Origin: Gammaproteobacteria bacterium
GTDB taxonomy: Bacteria > Pseudomonadota > Gammaproteobacteria > Steroidobacterales > XN24
Reading direction: 5' to 3'
DNA length: 42,405 nucleotides
NCBI GenBank assembly: GCA_049669065.1
Contig: JBATKC010000097.1
Span: 1-42,405, forward strand
Of this stretch, positions 1,883 to 40,831 are shown one piece after another (position 1 is the stretch's first letter; every line of letters begins with the position of its first letter). The notes beneath the pieces were generated by a model. It worked only from the letters and a program-made list of their open reading frames with translations, was not told the origin of the DNA and ran no database searches. The position numbers were made by a program, and so were the translations under genes.

Positions 1883-3823
1883 ATGAGTAATGCCGCGCCG
1901 CTGCCGCAGCTGACCGTCAAGGCGATCGTGCTGGGCATCATCCTGTCGATGGTCCTGGCCGGCGCCAACGCCTATCTGGGCCTTTTCGCGGGCATGACTG
2001 TGTCTGCCTCGATCCCGGCTGCGGTGATCTCGATGGGTATCCTCAGCCTGTTCCGCGAATCCAACATCCTCGAGAACAACATCGTGCAGACTGCGGCCTC
2101 GGCCGGTGAGTCAGTGGCCGCCGGTGTGATCTTTACCATCCCCGCGTTGGTGCTGCTCGGCTACTGGGATGCGTTCGACTATTGGTGGGTGTCGGTCATC
2201 GCCGGGCTGGGCGGTCTGCTCGGTGTGCTGTTTACCATCCCTCTGCGCCGCTCGCTGATCGTCGAAGAAGGGCTCGCCTTCCCGGAAGGCAAGGCCACCG
2301 CGGAAGTGCTCAAGGTCGGTGACGACCCCAAGAGCGGGGTAGTCCAGCTGGCGCTGGCGGCGCTGGCCGGCGCGGTCACCAAACTCGCCGCCTCCGGGCT
2401 GCGCCTGTGGAGCGAGACCGCACAGGCGGCGACCTTTGCCGGCAACGGTATCGCCTATATCGGCACCAACCTGTCGCCGGCGCTGCTCAGCGTCGGCTAT
2501 ATCGTCGGTCTGAATATCGCCACGCTGGTCTGCGCCGGCGGCGCGATCTCCTGGTTTATCGCGATCCCGATCTACAGCTCCCTGTATCTGGAGACCGATC
2601 CGGTGCTGATGCAGATGATGGCCGAGGGCGCCAGCGCCACCGACGTGGCGTTCCAGATCTGGACCTCGCAGATCCGTTATCTCGGTGTCGGTGCGATGTT
2701 GATCGGCGGCATCTGGGCATTGATCTCGATGCGCGGCTCACTGGTCTCCGGCGTACGCAGCGGACTCAAACAGATGTCCGCTGGAACCAGCGCAGTCGTC
2801 CACCACAGCGAGCGCGACACGCCGATGCAGTTCGTGCTCGCCGGCATCGCGCTGTTCGTGATCCCGATCTTTTTTGTCTACAACAACATCAGCGACAGCA
2901 TCGGTCTCGGCGTCAGTCTGCCGATGACGCTGATCATGGTGGTGGCCGGGTTCCTGTTTTCCTCGGTCGCGGCCTATATGGCGGGTCTTGTCGGCTCGTC
3001 GAACAATCCCATCTCCGGTATCACCATCGCCACCATCCTGTTCTCCTCGCTGGTGCTGCTGTGGCTGATGGGGCCGGAGAGCATCGGCTCGACCGTGGGC
3101 CCCGCCGCCGCGATCATGATCGGCGCCGTGGTCTGTTCCGCGGCCGCGATCGCCGGCGACAATCTGCAGGATCTGAAGGCCGGCTACATCCTCGGCGCGA
3201 CACCCTGGAAACAGCAGGTGATGCAGGGCGTCGGCGTGATCTCCGCGGTGCTGGTGATGGCACCGATCCTCAATCTGTTGCTGCAGGCCTATGGCATGGG
3301 CACACCCACCGAAGCGCACCCTAACGCGCTGCTCGCGCCCCAGGCCATGCTGATGGCATCGGTGGCCAAAGGCGTGTTTGGGGCTGGACTGCCCTGGAAC
3401 ATGGTCGCCATCGGTGTCGGTATCGGCGCGGTAATCATCGCGATTGACGAGTATCTGAAAAAGCGCGAGACGAAATGGCATGCGCCGGTGCTGGCGGTGG
3501 CCGTCGGGATCTATCTGCCGCTGGAATTGTCGGTGCCGATCTTTGCCGGCGGTCTGATCGCCGCCGCGGCCGAGCGTTTGAACGCGCGCCACGCGGATCC
3601 AGCCGCGCGTGAGCGCAATGCGCGCATTGGCATGCTGACCGCCGCCGGTCTGATCACCGGCGAAGCCCTGGTCGGGATCTTCCTCGCCATCCCTATCGTG
3701 CTGAGCGGCGACGCCGGCATACTGGCCATCGCTGATGAGCCGTTTGGTGGCACTCCCGGGCTGATCGTGGTGGCGGCGCTGGGCTGGTGGATGTACAAGG
3801 CGGCCACGCGTCGGCCCGGCTGA
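1883..3823 (+). CDS. OPT-superfamily oligopeptide transporter
   Basis: 646-aa polytopic membrane protein. The N-terminus (LTVKAIVLGIILSMVLAGANAYLGLFAGMTVSASIPAAVISMGIL) and the overall length and helix pattern are typical of bacterial OPT family transporters. Confidence 0.8.
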   Translation: MSNAAPLPQLTVKAIVLGIILSMVLAGANAYLGLFAGMTVSASIPAAVISMGILSLFRESNILENNIVQTAASAGESVAAGVIFTIPALVLLGYWDAFDYWWVSVIAGLGGLLGVLFTIPLRRSLIVEEGLAFPEGKATAEVLKVGDDPKSGVVQLALAALAGAVTKLAASGLRLWSETAQAATFAGNGIAYIGTNLSPALLSVGYIVGLNIATLVCAGGAISWFIAIPIYSSLYLETDPVLMQMMAEGASATDVAFQIWTSQIRYLGVGAMLIGGIWALISMRGSLVSGVRSGLKQMSAGTSAVVHHSERDTPMQFVLAGIALFVIPIFFVYNNISDSIGLGVSLPMTLIMVVAGFLFSSVAAYMAGLVGSSNNPISGITIATILFSSLVLLWLMGPESIGSTVGPAAAIMIGAVVCSAAAIAGDNLQDLKAGYILGATPWKQQVMQGVGVISAVLVMAPILNLLLQAYGMGTPTEAHPNALLAPQAMLMASVAKGVFGAGLPWNMVAIGVGIGAVIIAIDEYLKKRETKWHAPVLAVAVGIYLPLELSVPIFAGGLIAAAAERLNARHADPAARERNARIGMLTAAGLITGEALVGIFLAIPIVLSGDAGILAIADEPFGGTPGLIVVAALGWWMYKAATRRPG

Positions 3824-8050: not shown

Positions 8051-8554
8051 TCAGGCGAGCATCGAACGCAGCATCCAGATGTTCTCCTCGTGCTGTCCGA
8101 TCCGATGGGTCAGCAGGTCCGCGGTCTTGACGTCGTCAGACTCTTCGGCTCGCTTGACCGCTTCACGCAGGCTCCGGGCGCATCGCTCGTTGCCTTCCAC
8201 TAACCACTGGATCATCTCCTTGGTGGACTGGGGTTCGGGCTGATTCGGCAGCTGCGAGAGCGAGACCATGCGGCGCAAACCACCGGGGGCCGGAAAACCG
8301 ATCGCCCGGATCCGTTCGGCCAGGTTATCGACGGCGTCAGCCAGATCGCCATACTGGGCCTCGGTCAGATTGTGCAGGCTGTAGAACAACGGTCCGGTTG
8401 CGTTCCAGTGGACCGACTGCGTATCTCCGTAGAGCATATAGGTGTCTGCGAGAGCGACGGACAGGTCGTTGGCCAGGGCTTTTCTGTCCTGCCGATCGAC
8501 ACCGATCTCAACGGGTGTTTCGTGAGCCTTGCTAGCATATAGTCGTGCACTCAT
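8051..8554 (-). CDS. dps: Dps (DNA-binding ferritin-like protein, starvation/oxidative stress)
   Basis: HWNATGPLFYSLHNLTEAQYGDLADAVDNLAERIRAIG contains the Dps inter-subunit ferroxidase ligands (H..H..D..E). 167 aa. AGGAGG RBS upstream of the ATG. Confidence 0.9.
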   Translation of the reverse strand: MSARLYASKAHETPVEIGVDRQDRKALANDLSVALADTYMLYGDTQSVHWNATGPLFYSLHNLTEAQYGDLADAVDNLAERIRAIGFPAPGGLRRMVSLSQLPNQPEPQSTKEMIQWLVEGNERCARSLREAVKRAEESDDVKTADLLTHRIGQHEENIWMLRSMLA

Positions 8555-35163: not shown

Positions 35164-35547
35164 TCAATCGGTGTCAATCCGCCACGGCGGAGAACGCCGG
35201 TTCTCGCCGGCCGCGTACAGACAGATTTCGTTGCCGGAAGGATCCTTGAGCCGTGCCTCGCGCCACAACCAGCGCTGGTCCTCGGGTCCACCGTCGAATA
35301 CCAGGCCCGCTGCCTGCAGCCGGGTCACGGTCTCGTCCAGGTCACGGCACTCAAAATAGACGGTCAGCCCGGTCGTATCCGGCGCCTGCCCGACCCGGTG
35401 GACCGAGAACGTGCTGTCGCCATCGGGACACTCGAAACGTGCGTAACGGGGCACCGAATCGACGATCAGCTTGAGGCCCAGCGCACGATAAAACGCGACC
35501 GATGCGGCCACGTCCGTCGCCGGGACCGTCACCTGATTGAGATCCAC
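35164..35547 (-). CDS. VOC-family (glyoxalase/bleomycin-resistance/dioxygenase fold) protein
   Basis: 127 aa. LNQVTVPATDVAASVAFYRALGL is a typical VOC beta-alpha-beta-beta-beta start. GTG start. Confidence 0.75.
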   Translation of the reverse strand: MDLNQVTVPATDVAASVAFYRALGLKLIVDSVPRYARFECPDGDSTFSVHRVGQAPDTTGLTVYFECRDLDETVTRLQAAGLVFDGGPEDQRWLWREARLKDPSGNEICLYAAGENRRSPPWRIDTD

Positions 35548-35550
35548 GCG

Positions 35551-35928
35551 TCAGTCCCGCCGGATCACCATCACCTCATATTGGCCCTTCGGGCCGATGA
35601 AGTTGGAGGCGAGGCCGCTGAAGATACTGACCAACAAGGCTCCGAACAACGCCGCCCAAAAACCGGACAGCTGGAAACCGTCGAGCAGAGACGCCACCAG
35701 GCCGAGCATGGCCGCATTGACGACCAGCAAAAAAAGCCCAAGCGTGACGATGCTCAACGGCAGCGTCAGGATCACGGCAATAGGCCGCAACAGCGCGTTG
35801 ACGATCCCCAGCCAGAACGCCGCCCAGAGCAAGGAACCGGTGCTCTGAAACATCATTCCGGGGACGATCGCGGAGGCCAGCCACATGGCGCCGGCGGTGA
35901 TCAAAAATCGGATCAAAATGCCCTGCAT
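35551..35928 (-). CDS. Phage-holin-family-4 / DUF360 (YvlD-like) small membrane protein
   Basis: 125 aa. LIRFLITAGAMWLAS...LGIVNALLRPIAVILTLPLSIVTLGLFLLVVNAAML...FWAALFGALLVSI matches the YvlD-type pattern. Confidence 0.75.
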   Translation of the reverse strand: MQGILIRFLITAGAMWLASAIVPGMMFQSTGSLLWAAFWLGIVNALLRPIAVILTLPLSIVTLGLFLLVVNAAMLGLVASLLDGFQLSGFWAALFGALLVSIFSGLASNFIGPKGQYEVMVIRRD

Positions 35929-35955: not shown

Positions 35956-36672
35956 TCAGTCGGGCTGCGGGTGAAAGATCTGCTCCAGCTCCATATGAGT
36001 CAATGCGCGGATCTGGCGCAACAGGTACCAGAGCGCGACGATCATGATGGCCATGGACGGTAACACGATCACCGGATAACTCAGCGCGGTCATCCGCCCC
36101 AGCTCTTCGTTGAACGCGGTCGAACCTGCCGGGCTGCGTACGATCATCCGTGCGAGGATAAAATTCAGCGTCGATGACAGGAAAAATGAACCTGCCAGCA
36201 GCCACGAGGCCGTGACCAGGCTGCGCTCAAAGCGCGCGTGGTTATCATACGCATCCAGCGCTGCGTCCACCGCGGGAACGTTGATGATCTTCTCGTTATA
36301 AAGCAGTGAGCGCACGATAGGAAATCGGGTGCGTGTAGAGACGATCACCGCCAGCCCGATCACTGCTGGCACCGCGGCCTCCTTGACCGCAAGCCACTTC
36401 GGATCCAGCTCGAACAGACCGATGCCGCCGGTGAGCAATGTGCTGACGACACCCAGCGCCGAGATAAAATTGAAGCGCCGGCAACGCACCGCATCCTGGA
36501 TGCCGTAGACCAGCGGGAAGGCCAGCGCCACCAATAGCCCGTAGACCGGCCCGAGATATGCCTCGCCGCTCAATTTCATCAGCACCAGCGCCGGGATCGC
36601 GATATTGATCAGCAGGCTGATCCACGGATTCTCTGGCCGCTGGGTAACGGTTTTTTCGCTGGTCTGGTTCAT
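35956..36672 (-). CDS. Polytopic inner-membrane protein of unknown function
   Basis: 238-aa ORF with about 6 hydrophobic helices and GC3-rich codon usage consistent with its neighbours. I recognised no motif with confidence. Confidence 0.6.
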   Translation of the reverse strand: MNQTSEKTVTQRPENPWISLLINIAIPALVLMKLSGEAYLGPVYGLLVALAFPLVYGIQDAVRCRRFNFISALGVVSTLLTGGIGLFELDPKWLAVKEAAVPAVIGLAVIVSTRTRFPIVRSLLYNEKIINVPAVDAALDAYDNHARFERSLVTASWLLAGSFFLSSTLNFILARMIVRSPAGSTAFNEELGRMTALSYPVIVLPSMAIMIVALWYLLRQIRALTHMELEQIFHPQPD

Positions 36673-36703: not shown

Positions 36704-37630
36704 TTATTCTAACCCGGCCGGGTCGGTGATCCGTTCACCTGGCGTCTCCGGCAAGGAGTCGTCCCCGGGGTCCTGATGGATCAGCACATCGGCGCCCGGG
36801 AAGCCCGCGCGAATACGGTCTGCCACCTCGTCGCCGATCCGATGGGCCCGGGCCAGGGTCATGCGTCCATCCAGTTCCAGGTGCATCTGGATAAAGCGGG
36901 TCTGGCCCGCCTGACGCGTCCGCAACTCGTGCACCGCACGTACGTGTTCATGATCCAGCGCGATGCGCGCGATCTCCTGCTGGACGTCTTCGGACAGTTC
37001 ACGATCCATCAGATGGTCTACCGCCTCGCGGCCGATGCCGTAGGCGCCGTACAGGATCATCACGCCAAGACCAAGTCCGAACACCGGGTCCGCCCAGCGC
37101 ACGCCCCATGCGGCCAGACCCAGCGCAAGGATCACCGCCATGTTGGTAAACAGATCCATCACGTAGTGCAAGGAATCGGCACGGATCGCGAGCGAGTTTG
37201 TGCGGCGGATCACATAGCGCTGGACTCCGATCAATAACAAGGTCGCCAGCGTCGCGAAGATCATCACGCCGATACCCTGGGCCACGCCTTCCACCGGCTG
37301 CGGGTGAAGCAGCCGGTCGACCGCCTCGAACAAAAGCAGCACAGCGGTGCCGGCGATAAACGCCGACTGCGCGAGACCGGCGAGGGATTCGGCTTTGCCG
37401 TGGCCAAAGCGATGCTCCTCATCGGCCGGCTGCAGCGCGTAGCGGACCGCCAGCAGATTGACGATCGACGCGGCCGCGTCCATCAGCGAATCCAGCAACG
37501 AGGCCAGCAACGCAACCGACCCCGTGTTGAGCCAGACCACCAGCTTGACCGCGATCAGCACACCGGCGGTGGCCACGGACCAGACCGTGGCAAGTCGCAG
37601 CAGCCGGGCATTCTCCGCAGAGGTGATCAA
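36704..37630 (-). CDS. fieF: Cation diffusion facilitator (FieF/YiiP-type Fe/Zn efflux) transporter
   Basis: [54 protein letters not shown] closely parallels E. coli FieF (TGSVSILAALVDSLVD...[24 protein letters not shown]). TTG start 1 nt after the upstream stop. Confidence 0.9.
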   Translation of the reverse strand: [308 protein letters not shown]

Positions 37631-37631
37631 G

Positions 37632-37925
37632 CTATTCGTGGTGGTGCCCGATCGGGCCCTCGGAGAACAGGGTCTCCTTTAGTTCAGCATCAAAAGTCGG
37701 ATCGCGGCGGCGGATCCATTCGAGCACCATCGCCGCATGCTCTTTCTCTTCGTCCCGGTTGTGGGCGAGGATGGATTTGAGCTCCTCATCGTGACAGGCA
37801 TCCACGCGCTGGTTATACCAGTCCACCGCCTCGAGCTCTTCCATCAGCGAGATAATGGCCCGGTGCATGTCGCGGGTCGCCTTGCTCAGTTCTTCTACCG
37901 GCTCGTGGTAGCCCTCATTCGCCAT
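37632..37925 (-). CDS. Encapsulated-ferritin (EncFtn)-family ferritin-like protein lacking a C-terminal encapsulin-targeting peptide
   Basis: HEPVEELSKATRDMHRAIISLMEELEAVDWYNQRVDACHDEELKSILAHNRDEEKEHAAMVLEWIRRRD carries the EncFtn ExxH / EExxH di-iron motif pattern. The protein ends 6 aa after the conserved EGPI, with GHHHE. Confidence 0.8.
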   Translation of the reverse strand: MANEGYHEPVEELSKATRDMHRAIISLMEELEAVDWYNQRVDACHDEELKSILAHNRDEEKEHAAMVLEWIRRRDPTFDAELKETLFSEGPIGHHHE

Positions 37926-37960
37926 CGTCGATCTCCTCTCTGGGAAAACTCAGGGATCAA

Positions 37961-38842
37961 TCAGTAAATCATCGGCAGGAAGTTCTGCTCTTCGATCGGC
38001 GAGCGGACATAGATCTTGCTGGTATCCCGGCGCGGCAATGTCAGCGGGTCTGGCATCACGTCCTGATAGGGGATCTTGCTCAGGATGTGATGGATACAGT
38101 TGAGCCGCGCTCGCTTCTTGTCGTCGGCCGGCACCACCCACCACGGTGACTGTGGTGTGTCGGAGAACTTGAGCATGTCGTCCTTGGCCCGGGAGTACTC
38201 CCGATACAGCCGCCGCGATTCCAGATCCATCGGACTCAGCTTCCAGCGTTTCATCGGGTCATGGATGCGCGACTGGAAACGGCGTTCCTGCTCCTCGTCG
38301 CTGACCGAGAACCAGTATTTGAGCAGGATGATGTCGGAGCGGATCAACATACGCTCGAACTCCGGCACCTCGCGGGCGAACTCGAGATATTCCTCGCGGG
38401 TACAGAATCCCATCACCCGCTCGACCCCGGCCCGGTTGTACCAGCTCCGATCGAACAGCACCATTTCGCCGCCTGCCGGCAGCTGGGCCACATAGCGCTG
38501 GAAGTACCACTGGGTCTTTTCGCGCTCGGTGGGCGTCGGCAATGCCGCGATCCTCACCACCCGCGGGTTGACGCATTCCATGATGCGCTTGATGGCGCCC
38601 CCCTTGCCAGCGGCATCGCGGCCCTCGAACAGGACCACGACCTTGAGCTTTTCGTACTTGACCCATTCCTGCAGCTTGACCAGTTCTTCCTGGAGCATGC
38701 TCAGATGCTTGTTATAGATGGCGCCCCTCAGCTTGCCTTTCTTGGTGTACCAGCTTTTTCGCTCCTCCGGCACATCGAACTTGGGGCATTCTCCGACCAC
38801 GCCGGCGCCGGGCGCGTCCAGCTGCTTTTTCTTGCTACTCAT
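37961..38842 (-). CDS. ppk2: Polyphosphate kinase 2 (single-domain PPK2)
   Basis: Walker A in PPK2 context (VVVLFEGRDAAGKGGAIKRI), plus FDRSWYNRAGVERVMGF and the lid region. Confidence 0.9.
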   Translation of the reverse strand: MSSKKKQLDAPGAGVVGECPKFDVPEERKSWYTKKGKLRGAIYNKHLSMLQEELVKLQEWVKYEKLKVVVLFEGRDAAGKGGAIKRIMECVNPRVVRIAALPTPTEREKTQWYFQRYVAQLPAGGEMVLFDRSWYNRAGVERVMGFCTREEYLEFAREVPEFERMLIRSDIILLKYWFSVSDEEQERRFQSRIHDPMKRWKLSPMDLESRRLYREYSRAKDDMLKFSDTPQSPWWVVPADDKKRARLNCIHHILSKIPYQDVMPDPLTLPRRDTSKIYVRSPIEEQNFLPMIY

Positions 38843-38956
38843 TGTTCCAATGACCTATTCTTCTCCCTTCACCACTATAACTTCCGCAGGCCCGGCTCGC
38901 GAGACTCTGCGTCATCCGGGTGAACAAATCTGCCAGTCAGCCCGACAATACAGACT

Positions 38957-40831
38957 ATGGGTTTTCTTAGAAAACTGACGCTACCCACGATCATCGTCAT
39001 CCTCGGTTGGGGCTTCTGGATGAACGACGATTTTCTCCGCCTTGCCGCGGGCGTCGCGTTGTTTATGTTCGGCATGCTGCTGCTGGAAAAGGGCTTCCAG
39101 GCCTTTACCGGCGGCATCCTTGAGCGCGTACTGGAGGCCAGCACCGGGACCCGGCTGCGCAGTATGGGCTTCGGTCTGGTGACCACCGCGCTGATGCAGT
39201 CGAGCTCGCTGGTGTCGCTGATCACGATCACCTTCCTTTCCGCCGGGCTGATTGGCCTGGCGGCTGGCATCGGCATTATTTTCGGCTCCAACATCGGCAC
39301 CACCACCGGTGCCTGGCTGATGGCGTCCTACGGCGTCAAAATCGATCTGGCCACCTACGCCCTGCCGATGGCGGTGTTCGGCATCTTGTTCATCTATCAG
39401 AAGGACGGCAAGCAGAAGGGCGTTGGCAACGTGCTGCTCGGTATCGCCTTCCTGTTTATCGGCATCCAGTTTATCAAGGACGGCTTTGAGGCAGTCAGCC
39501 AGGGCATGGATCTGGCCCGGTTCGCGCTCGACGGCTATCTCGGCGTGTTCGCCTTTGCCGCAGTCGGCATCGTCGCCACCGTGATCATGCAATCCAGCCA
39601 CGCGGTGCTGATGCTGACCATCGCGGCCCTGGCCGCGGATCAGGTGTCGTACTTCAACGCGCTGGCGCTGGCCATCGGTGCCAACGTTGGCACTACGATT
39701 ACGGCGATACTCGGCGCCATGGGAGCCAATGTGGCGGGCAAGCGGCTGGCGGGTGCGCATCTGATATTCAACTTCACAACAGGGCTGATCGCCATCGCTT
39801 TTATCGGGCCGCTGGCGACCCTGGTCGACGAGGTATCGGTATGGCTCGGCATCGCCAGCGACGATTACACGCTGAAGCTCGCGGTCTTCCACACGATATT
39901 CAACGTCGTGGGTGTCGTGATCATGCTCCCGCTGATTGACCGGATGGTCGTTTTTTTACAGCGGATGCTGCCCGAGCAGATCGTGGTCGACGGTATCGAG
40001 CAGCCACGTTTCCTGGTTGACGCGCTGGTCGACTACCCCGATGCGGCGCTGGTGGCGCTGACCCGCGAGTGTCAGCACCTGGGGATGAACGCGATCGAGA
40101 TCATCGCCTATGCGATCGGACTGCATCGAAGCAACCTGCTCGGGGAAGAGCCGGTCGAAGCACTGGTCGCACGATCCAAAACCATCGAGCACATCCGGCT
40201 CAAACACCTTTATCGGACGCGTATCAAGGCCATCTACAGCGCCATCCTAGAGTTCTCAGGCAAGGCGCAACCACGCATGTCCGGCGCGGATGCGGAAACG
40301 ATGCACGAGTTGCGAAACGCGGCCCGTACGCTGGTCGAGGCCATCAAGACACTCAAGCTGCTGCGCAAGAATATGGCCTTCTATATCGCCTCGGACAACG
40401 CCTATATGCGTGATCAATATGACCGCATGCGGGTACATCTGGGCAATCTGATCCGATCGATCTTCGAGCTGCGCGAGATCGAGGATATGACCGAGGTAAA
40501 GGCGCGGCTCAAGCGGCTGAACCAGGCAGTCGCGGCGGACGATGCAGTCGCTAACGGCACGCTCGATCGCCTGATCCGCGATGAATTGATCACCGCTCAG
40601 ATGGCGTCATCGCTGATGAACGACACCGGCTATGCCTCCACTATCCATCATCGCCTGGTAGACGCGGCCGAGACCATCTTCGGACTCGCGCGGAAATTCT
40701 CGGAAGTGTCCCTCGAACTGCAGGACGACGACGGTATGCCATTGGCGGAGCGTCAGCTTATCGCGAAGATGCTGCGCGAGGGCCAGGACGAAATAGACAG
40801 GGCGGTAGAAGAGATGCGGCGTGGAGCGTGA
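38957..40831 (+). CDS. Na+/phosphate cotransporter (NptA/YjbB family) with C-terminal PhoU-like helical domain
   Basis: Duplicated Na/Pi-cotransporter repeats (ALMQSSSLVSLITI / VIMQSSHAVLMLTI, GSNIGTTTGAW / GANVGTTITAI), then a soluble helical C-terminal region of about 250 aa. Confidence 0.85.
   Translation: MGFLRKLTLPTIIVILGWGFWMNDDFLRLAAGVALFMFGMLLLEKGFQAFTGGILERVLEASTGTRLRSMGFGLVTTALMQSSSLVSLITITFLSAGLIGLAAGIGIIFGSNIGTTTGAWLMASYGVKIDLATYALPMAVFGILFIYQKDGKQKGVGNVLLGIAFLFIGIQFIKDGFEAVSQGMDLARFALDGYLGVFAFAAVGIVATVIMQSSHAVLMLTIAALAADQVSYFNALALAIGANVGTTITAILGAMGANVAGKRLAGAHLIFNFTTGLIAIAFIGPLATLVDEVSVWLGIASDDYTLKLAVFHTIFNVVGVVIMLPLIDRMVVFLQRMLPEQIVVDGIEQPRFLVDALVDYPDAALVALTRECQHLGMNAIEIIAYAIGLHRSNLLGEEPVEALVARSKTIEHIRLKHLYRTRIKAIYSAILEFSGKAQPRMSGADAETMHELRNAARTLVEAIKTLKLLRKNMAFYIASDNAYMRDQYDRMRVHLGNLIRSIFELREIEDMTEVKARLKRLNQAVAADDAVANGTLDRLIRDELITAQMASSLMNDTGYASTIHHRLVDAAETIFGLARKFSEVSLELQDDDGMPLAERQLIAKMLREGQDEIDRAVEEMRRGA

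Follow-up and report, generated by a model that had tools for sequence, protein, structure and literature searches.

A tag-less EncFtn-like protein encoded in a family-specific gene block together with a FieF-like cation exporter

Encapsulated ferritins (EncFtns) that carry a targeting peptide oxidize Fe(II) at a di-iron site in the dimer interface and cannot hold mineral without their shell (PMC11202242, PMC7762939). The ferritin tree of He et al. separates a 'Non-EncFtn' group from the EncFtns (eLife 2016;5:e18972, PMC5012862), and Eren et al. give it the name 's-FLP' in a review that describes PDB entry 3K6C as the same decamer as EncFtn (Biomolecules 2024;14:624, PMC11202242). The same review gives LFTD(E/N)KPIAHE as a putative, uncharacterized s-FLP tail and leaves the encapsulation of s-FLPs as a question; in the literature searched, the class is mentioned in these two papers only, and the 2021 census of encapsulins does not discuss it (PMC8346489). 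A ferritin-like domain that serves an iron exporter is known from Bradyrhizobium and Agrobacterium, where MbfA (Er-VIT1), a membrane-bound ferritin-like iron exporter, has this domain fused to VIT1 (PMC4902296). Here, we analyse a 42 405-nucleotide stretch of the gammaproteobacterial contig JBATKC010000097.1 (the window), which encodes a 97-residue s-FLP directly ahead of a FieF/YiiP-like cation diffusion facilitator (CDF). The class, its structure and FieF are already known; what is new is a family-specific operon, polyphosphate kinase 2 (PPK2)-s-FLP-FieF-VC0807, with probable translational coupling, and no report of this operon was found in the literature searched. The pair and its junction are located in the window as follows.

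37632..37925, minus strand: s-FLP, a 97-residue tag-less EncFtn-like ferritin-like protein (PF22277, TIGR04535)
37631..37631, minus strand: single-nucleotide spacer from the s-FLP stop codon (TAG) to the CDF start codon (TTG), read from the sequence
36704..37630, minus strand: FieF/YiiP-like CDF of 308 residues with a TTG start (PF01545, PF16916)

In profile searches the s-FLP scores 147.9 bits against PF22277 (EncFtn-like) and 133.5 bits against TIGR04535 ('encapsulin-associated ferritin-like protein'; cut-off 125 bits), which confirms the close EncFtn homologue that a first-pass annotation of this DNA had recognized by eye. The TIGR04535 match covers model positions 1-90 of 114; positions 91-114 are unmatched, and the tag-bearing C-terminal part is thus absent. 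The chain ends in EGPIGHHHE, and no C-terminal targeting peptide (L/F-x-V/I-G-S-L-K after a disordered linker) was found in the 97 residues. The annotation had described both the GHHHE ending and the missing localization peptide correctly, although it counted six residues after EGPI where there are five. Residues E30, E60, H63, Y37, E29, E32 and W36 of the s-FLP correspond to E32, E62, H65, Y39, E31, E34 and W38 of the Rhodospirillum rubrum (Rru) EncFtn. When 210 distinct homologues were aligned, six of the di-iron and entry-site residues (Rru Glu32, Glu62, His65, Tyr39, Glu31 and Glu34) were invariant and the entry-site tryptophan (Rru Trp38) was present in 208; the window s-FLP has all seven. 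The loss of di-iron ligands, which the annotation had named as grounds for abandoning its proposal, is not seen in this alignment.

The top match in the PDB is 3K6C, the 95-residue protein NE0167 from Nitrosomonas europaea (E = 4e-44 over residues 1-94); this crystallized relative is 80% identical to the window s-FLP and forms a ring of ten subunits. It scores 151.8 bits, compared with at most 117.9 bits for the tagged entries 5DA5, 5N5F and 7OE2, and the tagged EncFtns of R. rubrum (5DA5, E = 1.6e-33) and H. ochraceum (E of about 1e-33) rank below it. On this sequence evidence the 97-residue protein is a member of the already described tag-less s-FLP/Non-EncFtn class, typified by NE0167; it also fits the class in length (about 94-102 residues) and in ending within about 10 residues of its last helix. 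It is not the truncated or unusual EncFtn that it had first been taken for: the class is known, has thousands of homologues and contains the nearest PDB entry. More than 8000 database proteins match at E = 1e-3, the top 120 of which are 94-112 residues long and 72-100% identical. At least 592 genomic loci match the window s-FLP, and in the best 80 of these every protein measures 94-102 residues from the conserved N-terminus. A PF22277 gene occurs in 101 of 400 genomes drawn as an even sample of the window's class, with s-FLPs in about a fifth of the sampled genomes. Against the class motif LFT(D/E/N)KPIAH(E/K/D), the C-terminus of the window protein, LFSEGPIGHHHE, retains Phe87 and His94; the Lys-Pro-Ile-Ala of the motif is replaced by Gly-Pro-Ile-Gly with extra His, and similar His-rich variants are found in other lineages. 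A tree of 210 EncFtn-like cores (92 columns) had support for 11 of its 206 branches and did not resolve the monophyly of the short versus the tagged proteins.

The short EncFtn-like proteins of loci L003-L082 are 79-96% identical to the window s-FLP and come from metagenome-assembled genomes (MAGs) labelled Gamma-, Beta- and Alphaproteobacteria, Acidobacteria, Spirochaetaceae, Cyanobacteria, Acidimicrobiia and Haliangium. For a protein of 95 residues, such identity across phyla points to an unusual degree of conservation or else to extensive horizontal spread.

Searches of the window genome with the PF04454 and NF041155 profiles found no encapsulin, and the annotation's statement to this effect, made from the neighbouring genes, therefore holds for the genome as assembled. 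As this genome is a MAG (92% complete, 456 contigs), another 15 genomes of the family were searched as well; PF04454 gave no match in any of the 16, two of which, from the window's genus, are 100% complete. The family 2a profile NF041162 had no match in the window genome, nor in any control genome, so that this negative carries no weight. Among other genomes with a close s-FLP homologue, one of 50 (a spirochaete) has an encapsulin, on a different contig. We also surveyed 213 EncFtn-like loci (the 80 closest genomic homologues, 23 from relatives, 109 from the even class sample and the window), dividing the proteins into long (at least 112 residues; 24 proteins) and short (189 proteins) and counting a shell gene as a neighbour when it lay within 3 kb. 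An encapsulin gene adjoins 21 of the 24 long proteins and none of the 189 short ones. Most of the long proteins end in a tag of the TVGSLK or IGSLK type.

Four loci of unusual build were seen alongside these. On the plus strand of L182 (G204:C6:11005-17253), an open reading frame from about locus position 3001 encodes a 421-residue protein in which an EncFtn-like domain (PF22277, residues 6-88) is joined to a full encapsulin (PF04454, residues 138-399); a targeting peptide is lacking. The protein has the look of an EncFtn-encapsulin fusion from a bacterium of the window's class, although an assembly frameshift in the linker could also produce it; all of the Flp-fusion encapsulins in the 2021 census are archaeal (PMC8346489). 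On the minus strand of L215 (G363:C197:2954-9205), an EncFtn-like domain is fused in frame to the C-terminal half of an encapsulin only (PF04454 positions 116-252); the shell operon has either decayed or been rearranged. L170 (G191:C20:62265-68513, minus strand) encodes a 122-residue EncFtn-like protein with a basic tail rich in Lys, Pro and Ala (...KAEKPAAKPKAAPKAKKPTPKSE) instead of a targeting peptide; there is no encapsulin within 3 kb, and the tail resembles histone-like, nucleic-acid-binding tails. In a relative from the same order, a fragmentary EncFtn (model positions 2-39) adjoins an encapsulin that is split in two (G075:C72:12013-12634), which looks like a decaying shell operon; this genome retains an intact s-FLP on contig C98.

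The gene downstream of the s-FLP is, as the annotation had it, not an encapsulin but a FieF-type CDF. The protein contains the Cation_efflux transmembrane domain (PF01545, 149.5 bits) and the cytoplasmic ZT_dimer domain (PF16916, 87.1 bits), and among solved structures it is closest to E. coli FieF/YiiP (PDB entry 2QFI), to which it aligns end to end with E = 5e-85. It narrowly misses the NCBIfam equivalog cut-offs for FieF (NF050169, 383.6 bits with a cut-off of 420; NF007064, 366.6 bits with a cut-off of 447) and we therefore call it 'FieF-like' and not an equivalog. All of the residues of metal sites A, B and C of YiiP are identical in the alignment with 2QFI; the corresponding motifs in the CDF are D, D/H, D for site A, QPADxxHxFGHGKAE for site B and H..H..H..IHQDP for site C. 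We take the YiiP sites to be D45, D49, H153 and D157 (A), D68 and H75 (B), and H232, H248, H261, H283 and D285 (C).

At the junction, which reads ...GGG CAC CAC CAC GAA TAG c TTG ATC ACC..., the TTG start lies one nucleotide past the s-FLP stop codon, exactly as first annotated, and no Shine-Dalgarno-like motif is present in the 20 nt ahead of it. The CDF start in relatives is a TTG one nucleotide past the stop codon, a TTG within a TTGA overlap, or a GTG at 0, 13 or 18 nt, giving TTG and GTG starts from -4 to +18 nt relative to the s-FLP stop codon. Four relatives have no ATG, GTG or TTG ahead of the conserved N-terminal ARLLRLAT segment of the CDF; in unlinked FieF orthologues from three related families, the same segment follows an ordinary ATG or GTG start codon. 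The CDF of the block seems to have lost the signals for starting its own translation, which speaks for integrated expression, and its translation is probably coupled to that of the s-FLP by reinitiation. The translational coupling put forward in the annotation is in this sense supported as probable by the spacing, the TTG start and the lack of a Shine-Dalgarno motif. An s-FLP-CDF fusion made by frameshifting or read-through was considered and rejected, as the two genes are offset in frame by 0, 1 or 2 depending on the relative. Upstream of the s-FLP stop codon the CDF reading frame stays open over 47 to more than 89 nt, which the abundance of CAC and GAC codons for His and Asp in this stretch also explains.

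The window's family comprises 25 genomes in five genera, 23 of which contain one s-FLP, and was represented by 24 loci, including L019, which was assigned by synteny. In 24 of 24 loci the s-FLP is immediately preceded by PPK2, and a VC0807-family membrane protein lies downstream. A FieF-like CDF is found between the s-FLP and VC0807 in 15 of the 24; this CDF-bearing block spans all five genera, with CDF identities down to 58%. The nine CDF-less loci all belong to one genus, where VC0807 directly follows the s-FLP, and these nine genomes contain no FieF orthologue anywhere (the best CDF match is at most 31% identical). Outside the family, no CDF detectable with the window's CDF lies within 3-4 kb of a short s-FLP in any of 165 loci, and the order-level relatives G076, G077 and G087 carry the s-FLP gene on one contig and that of a FieF orthologue (46-60% identical) on another. 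The nine FieF losses and the unlinked relatives show that the s-FLP and FieF genes are gained, lost and placed independently. Most simply, the adjacency is ancestral in the family and was lost once; as it is confined to one family, it does not represent a general two-protein system. The recurrence survey that the annotation had called for thus goes against the ferroxidase-CDF partnership that it proposed: the absence of the pair from related genomes, which it had said would count against the idea, applies to all of the loci outside the family and to part of those within it, where 15 of 24 are paired.

All of the s-FLPs of the family end in His/Asp-rich tails (GHHHE, GHDHDHD, GHHDDHGH and others) whether or not a CDF is present. 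A His-rich tail that co-varies with the CDF was considered and rejected, as CDF-less members are equally rich in His and Asp; the tail therefore does not track the exporter.

Beyond the family the neighbourhoods of s-FLPs are essentially unconstrained, with about 100 Pfam families among about 75 neighbours per side. The commonest neighbour is a cluster of rubrerythrin, a CCG-domain (Fe-S) protein and DUF3501, at five to six loci; loci with such neighbours are L024, L027, L033, L052, L081, L010 and L059, and katG appears twice. The phoU gene adjoins the s-FLP at L023, L080 and L059 (two Chromatiaceae and one Competibacterales MAG) and ppk1 at L056 (Thiorhodococcus). A general link between s-FLPs and phosphate or polyphosphate genes was rejected on these counts outside the family (phoU at three and ppk1 at one of 165 loci), which are too few and phylogenetically clustered.

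The remainder of the block and its surroundings in the window are as follows.

38957..40831, plus strand: Na/Pi-cotransporter-family protein, 624 residues, divergent from the block (PF02690, 144.7 bits)
38874..38879, minus strand: TATAGT, a -10-like box 32 nt upstream of the PPK2 ATG (alignment of eight family loci)
37961..38842, minus strand: PPK2, the first gene of the co-directional block (PF03976, 351 bits; TIGR03707, 364.6 bits)
37926..37960, minus strand: 35-nt spacer from PPK2 to the s-FLP, with a strong Shine-Dalgarno sequence, GAGAGGAGA, 7 nt before the ATG (from the sequence)
35956..36672, minus strand: VC0807-family membrane protein, 31 nt downstream of the CDF (NF041646, 184.6 bits)
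35551-35928, minus strand: small membrane protein of the PF04020 'phage holin 4_2' family, in the co-directional run beyond VC0807
35164-35547, minus strand: glyoxalase/bleomycin-resistance-fold protein, beginning 4 nt past the end of the PF04020 gene in the same run
8054-8464, minus strand: classical ferritin-family gene (PF00210, 78.6 bits)

The four genes from PPK2 to VC0807 lie on the same strand with spacers of 35, 1 and 31 nt. No terminator-like site was found in these three spacers, and the scan's remaining matches fall within coding sequence or upstream of PPK2. PPK2, s-FLP, CDF and VC0807 are probably co-transcribed. The intergenic region between PPK2 and the divergent Na/Pi-cotransporter gene, which is syntenic in nine family loci, measures 114 nt (38843-38956), and TATAGT is the sole conserved block within it in the eight loci aligned. 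This box probably acts as the promoter of the block. The same alignment contains no TTGACA-like -35 element near it, which suggests an activator-dependent promoter; by eye, there is no convincing Fur or Pho operator in the region.

The s-FLP as the sole ferritin of the organism was also rejected. The window genome has three PF00210 ferritin-family genes, the s-FLP thus not being its only iron store; the two that lie outside the window are elsewhere in the genome, and one of them carries an in-frame TGA.

We consider it reasonably likely that the block encodes a module for metal and oxidative stress whose genes are co-expressed, with the s-FLP, FieF and PPK2 acting in parallel and the s-FLP and FieF forming no obligate complex. 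By homology, the s-FLP would be a cytosolic, shell-free and ring-forming two-helix protein that pairs to form a di-iron ferroxidase centre. In the host family, which consists of uncultured sulfur-oxidizing Gammaproteobacteria, transcription would start from the conserved promoter upstream of PPK2, and the CDF would be made by ribosomes that finish the s-FLP, yielding much soluble s-FLP and little exporter. In the putative division of labour, the s-FLP would bind or oxidize labile Fe(II) and so lower its level, FieF would export excess Fe(II), Zn(II) or Cd(II), and PPK2 would turn over polyphosphate, a metal chelator. Several points weigh against this account. There is no published activity or phenotype for an s-FLP in the literature searched, and the 'ferroxidase' label is transferred from the tagged EncFtns. 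A ferroxidase yields Fe(III) while CDFs carry divalent ions, so the two activities do not obviously feed each other, and the His-rich tail together with the well documented Zn/Cd transport by YiiP make zinc, rather than iron, a possible substrate. Co-transcription and coupling are deduced from spacing, and inertia can preserve a gene order within one family even when the genes have no function in common.

The last point leads to a different explanation, in which the CDF arrived downstream of the s-FLP in the ancestor of the family and was kept there by inertia, the two products being unrelated in role. The confinement of the arrangement to one family, the dispensability of the CDF within it and the essentially random s-FLP neighbourhoods elsewhere all fit such pure synteny; that both products handle metals, that the CDF apparently has no initiation signals of its own, which argues for integrated expression, and that the polyphosphate and phosphate genes of the block suit a theme of metal homeostasis do not, and we regard it as somewhat unlikely. 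The opposite extreme is that the s-FLP is a dedicated partner of FieF, buffering, sensing or presenting metal at the cytoplasmic domain of the exporter as a two-gene analogue of MbfA. The spacing is indeed very tight, CDF translation apparently depends on the s-FLP and the pair is kept across five genera; moreover, the ring architecture of EncFtn suggests by analogy that the His/Asp tail would face outwards, like the targeting peptide, and MbfA provides a precedent for a ferritin-like domain that serves an iron exporter and interacts with Bfr (PMC4902296). The independent distribution of the two genes nevertheless makes a dedicated partnership unlikely: a CDF is nearby in 0 of 165 s-FLP loci outside the family, the nine family genomes that lack FieF retain the s-FLP together with its His/Asp tail, FieF orthologues work unlinked in related families and in E. 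coli, and the two genes are not in a fixed frame relative to each other (offsets of 0, 1 or 2).

It is extremely improbable that the short tail is an unrecognized targeting signal for a shell encoded elsewhere, a possibility raised in the 2024 review (PMC11202242). The C-terminus of the class is conserved (LFTxKPIAH, with His94 kept in the window s-FLP), and the fusion-type EncFtns show that encapsulation is sterically possible with a short linker (PMC11202242), but family-1 encapsulins are missing from the protein's own genome, from 16 of 16 family genomes and from 49 of 50 other s-FLP genomes, and shell genes adjoin long loci (21 of 24) and not short ones (0 of 189). A more ambitious version of the parallel module, which we think quite unlikely, would have the s-FLP organize a shell-free iron module: its tailed ring would capture Fe(II) or Zn(II), oxidize the iron onto polyphosphate made by PPK2 and set the amount of FieF by obligatory termination-reinitiation. 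If this were so, polyphosphate-bound iron would be the shell-less counterpart of the iron-phosphate core of encapsulins, FieF would serve the overflow, and the phoU and ppk1 genes beside s-FLPs in Chromatiaceae and Competibacterales would be a second trace of a link between s-FLPs and phosphate.

The pair itself opens no new mechanism, being a lineage-specific operon of two known protein families, and the by-products of the survey may be more useful than the pair: the EncFtn-like proteins split cleanly into long ones, mostly tagged, that have a shell and short ones that do not, and the s-FLPs are very common yet unstudied, share at least 80% identity across phyla and essentially never co-occur with an encapsulin. 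The near-absence of encapsulins from s-FLP genomes bears on the question of a hidden targeting signal put forward in the 2024 review (PMC11202242). The family also offers the clearest contextual hint to the role of shell-free EncFtn-type rings, with PPK2 always upstream and an iron/zinc exporter often, it seems, translationally slaved downstream; this hint is weak and confined to one family.

Compared with described systems, MbfA is the nearest precedent for the pair, as a half-ferritin, dimerizing di-iron domain is tied to a divalent-iron exporter (PMC4902296). There, the domain is an erythrin that is covalently fused and the transporter is of the VIT1/CCC1 type, whereas the window has two separate genes, a CDF as the transporter and a ferritin-like protein that is EncFtn-like; the association in the window is also lineage-restricted and dispensable, and MbfA is thus a functional analogy only. 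The CDF shares six transmembrane helices, a C-terminal dimerization domain and three metal sites with E. coli FieF/YiiP (PDB entries 2QFI and 3H90) and Shewanella YiiP (PDB entry 5VRF), but unlike these it starts at a TTG without a Shine-Dalgarno sequence, abuts an upstream open reading frame and scores below the equivalog cut-offs. The s-FLP and Rru_A0973, the EncFtn from R. rubrum (PDB entry 5DA5), belong to the same PF22277 fold family and have identical ferroxidase ligands, tyrosine and entry-site residues. The R. rubrum protein has a disordered tail of ∼45 residues ending in SLGIGSLK and a gene directly upstream of the shell gene, both of which the window protein lacks; it stores iron only via its shell, and no such store is possible for the window s-FLP. 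The closest likeness is to NE0167 (PDB entry 3K6C), which is also about 95 residues long, has no targeting peptide and no shell, has the same ferroxidase-centre residues and, like the window s-FLP, is functionally uncharacterized. The two differ at the C-terminus, where the window protein ends in GPIGHHHE in place of the class consensus KPIAH(E/K/D), and at the entry site, where it keeps the tryptophan (MEELEAVDWY) that is a leucine in NE0167. They differ too in genomic setting: members of the NE0167 class are generally solitary and found in variable contexts, whereas the window s-FLP lies within the PPK2-s-FLP-FieF-VC0807 block.

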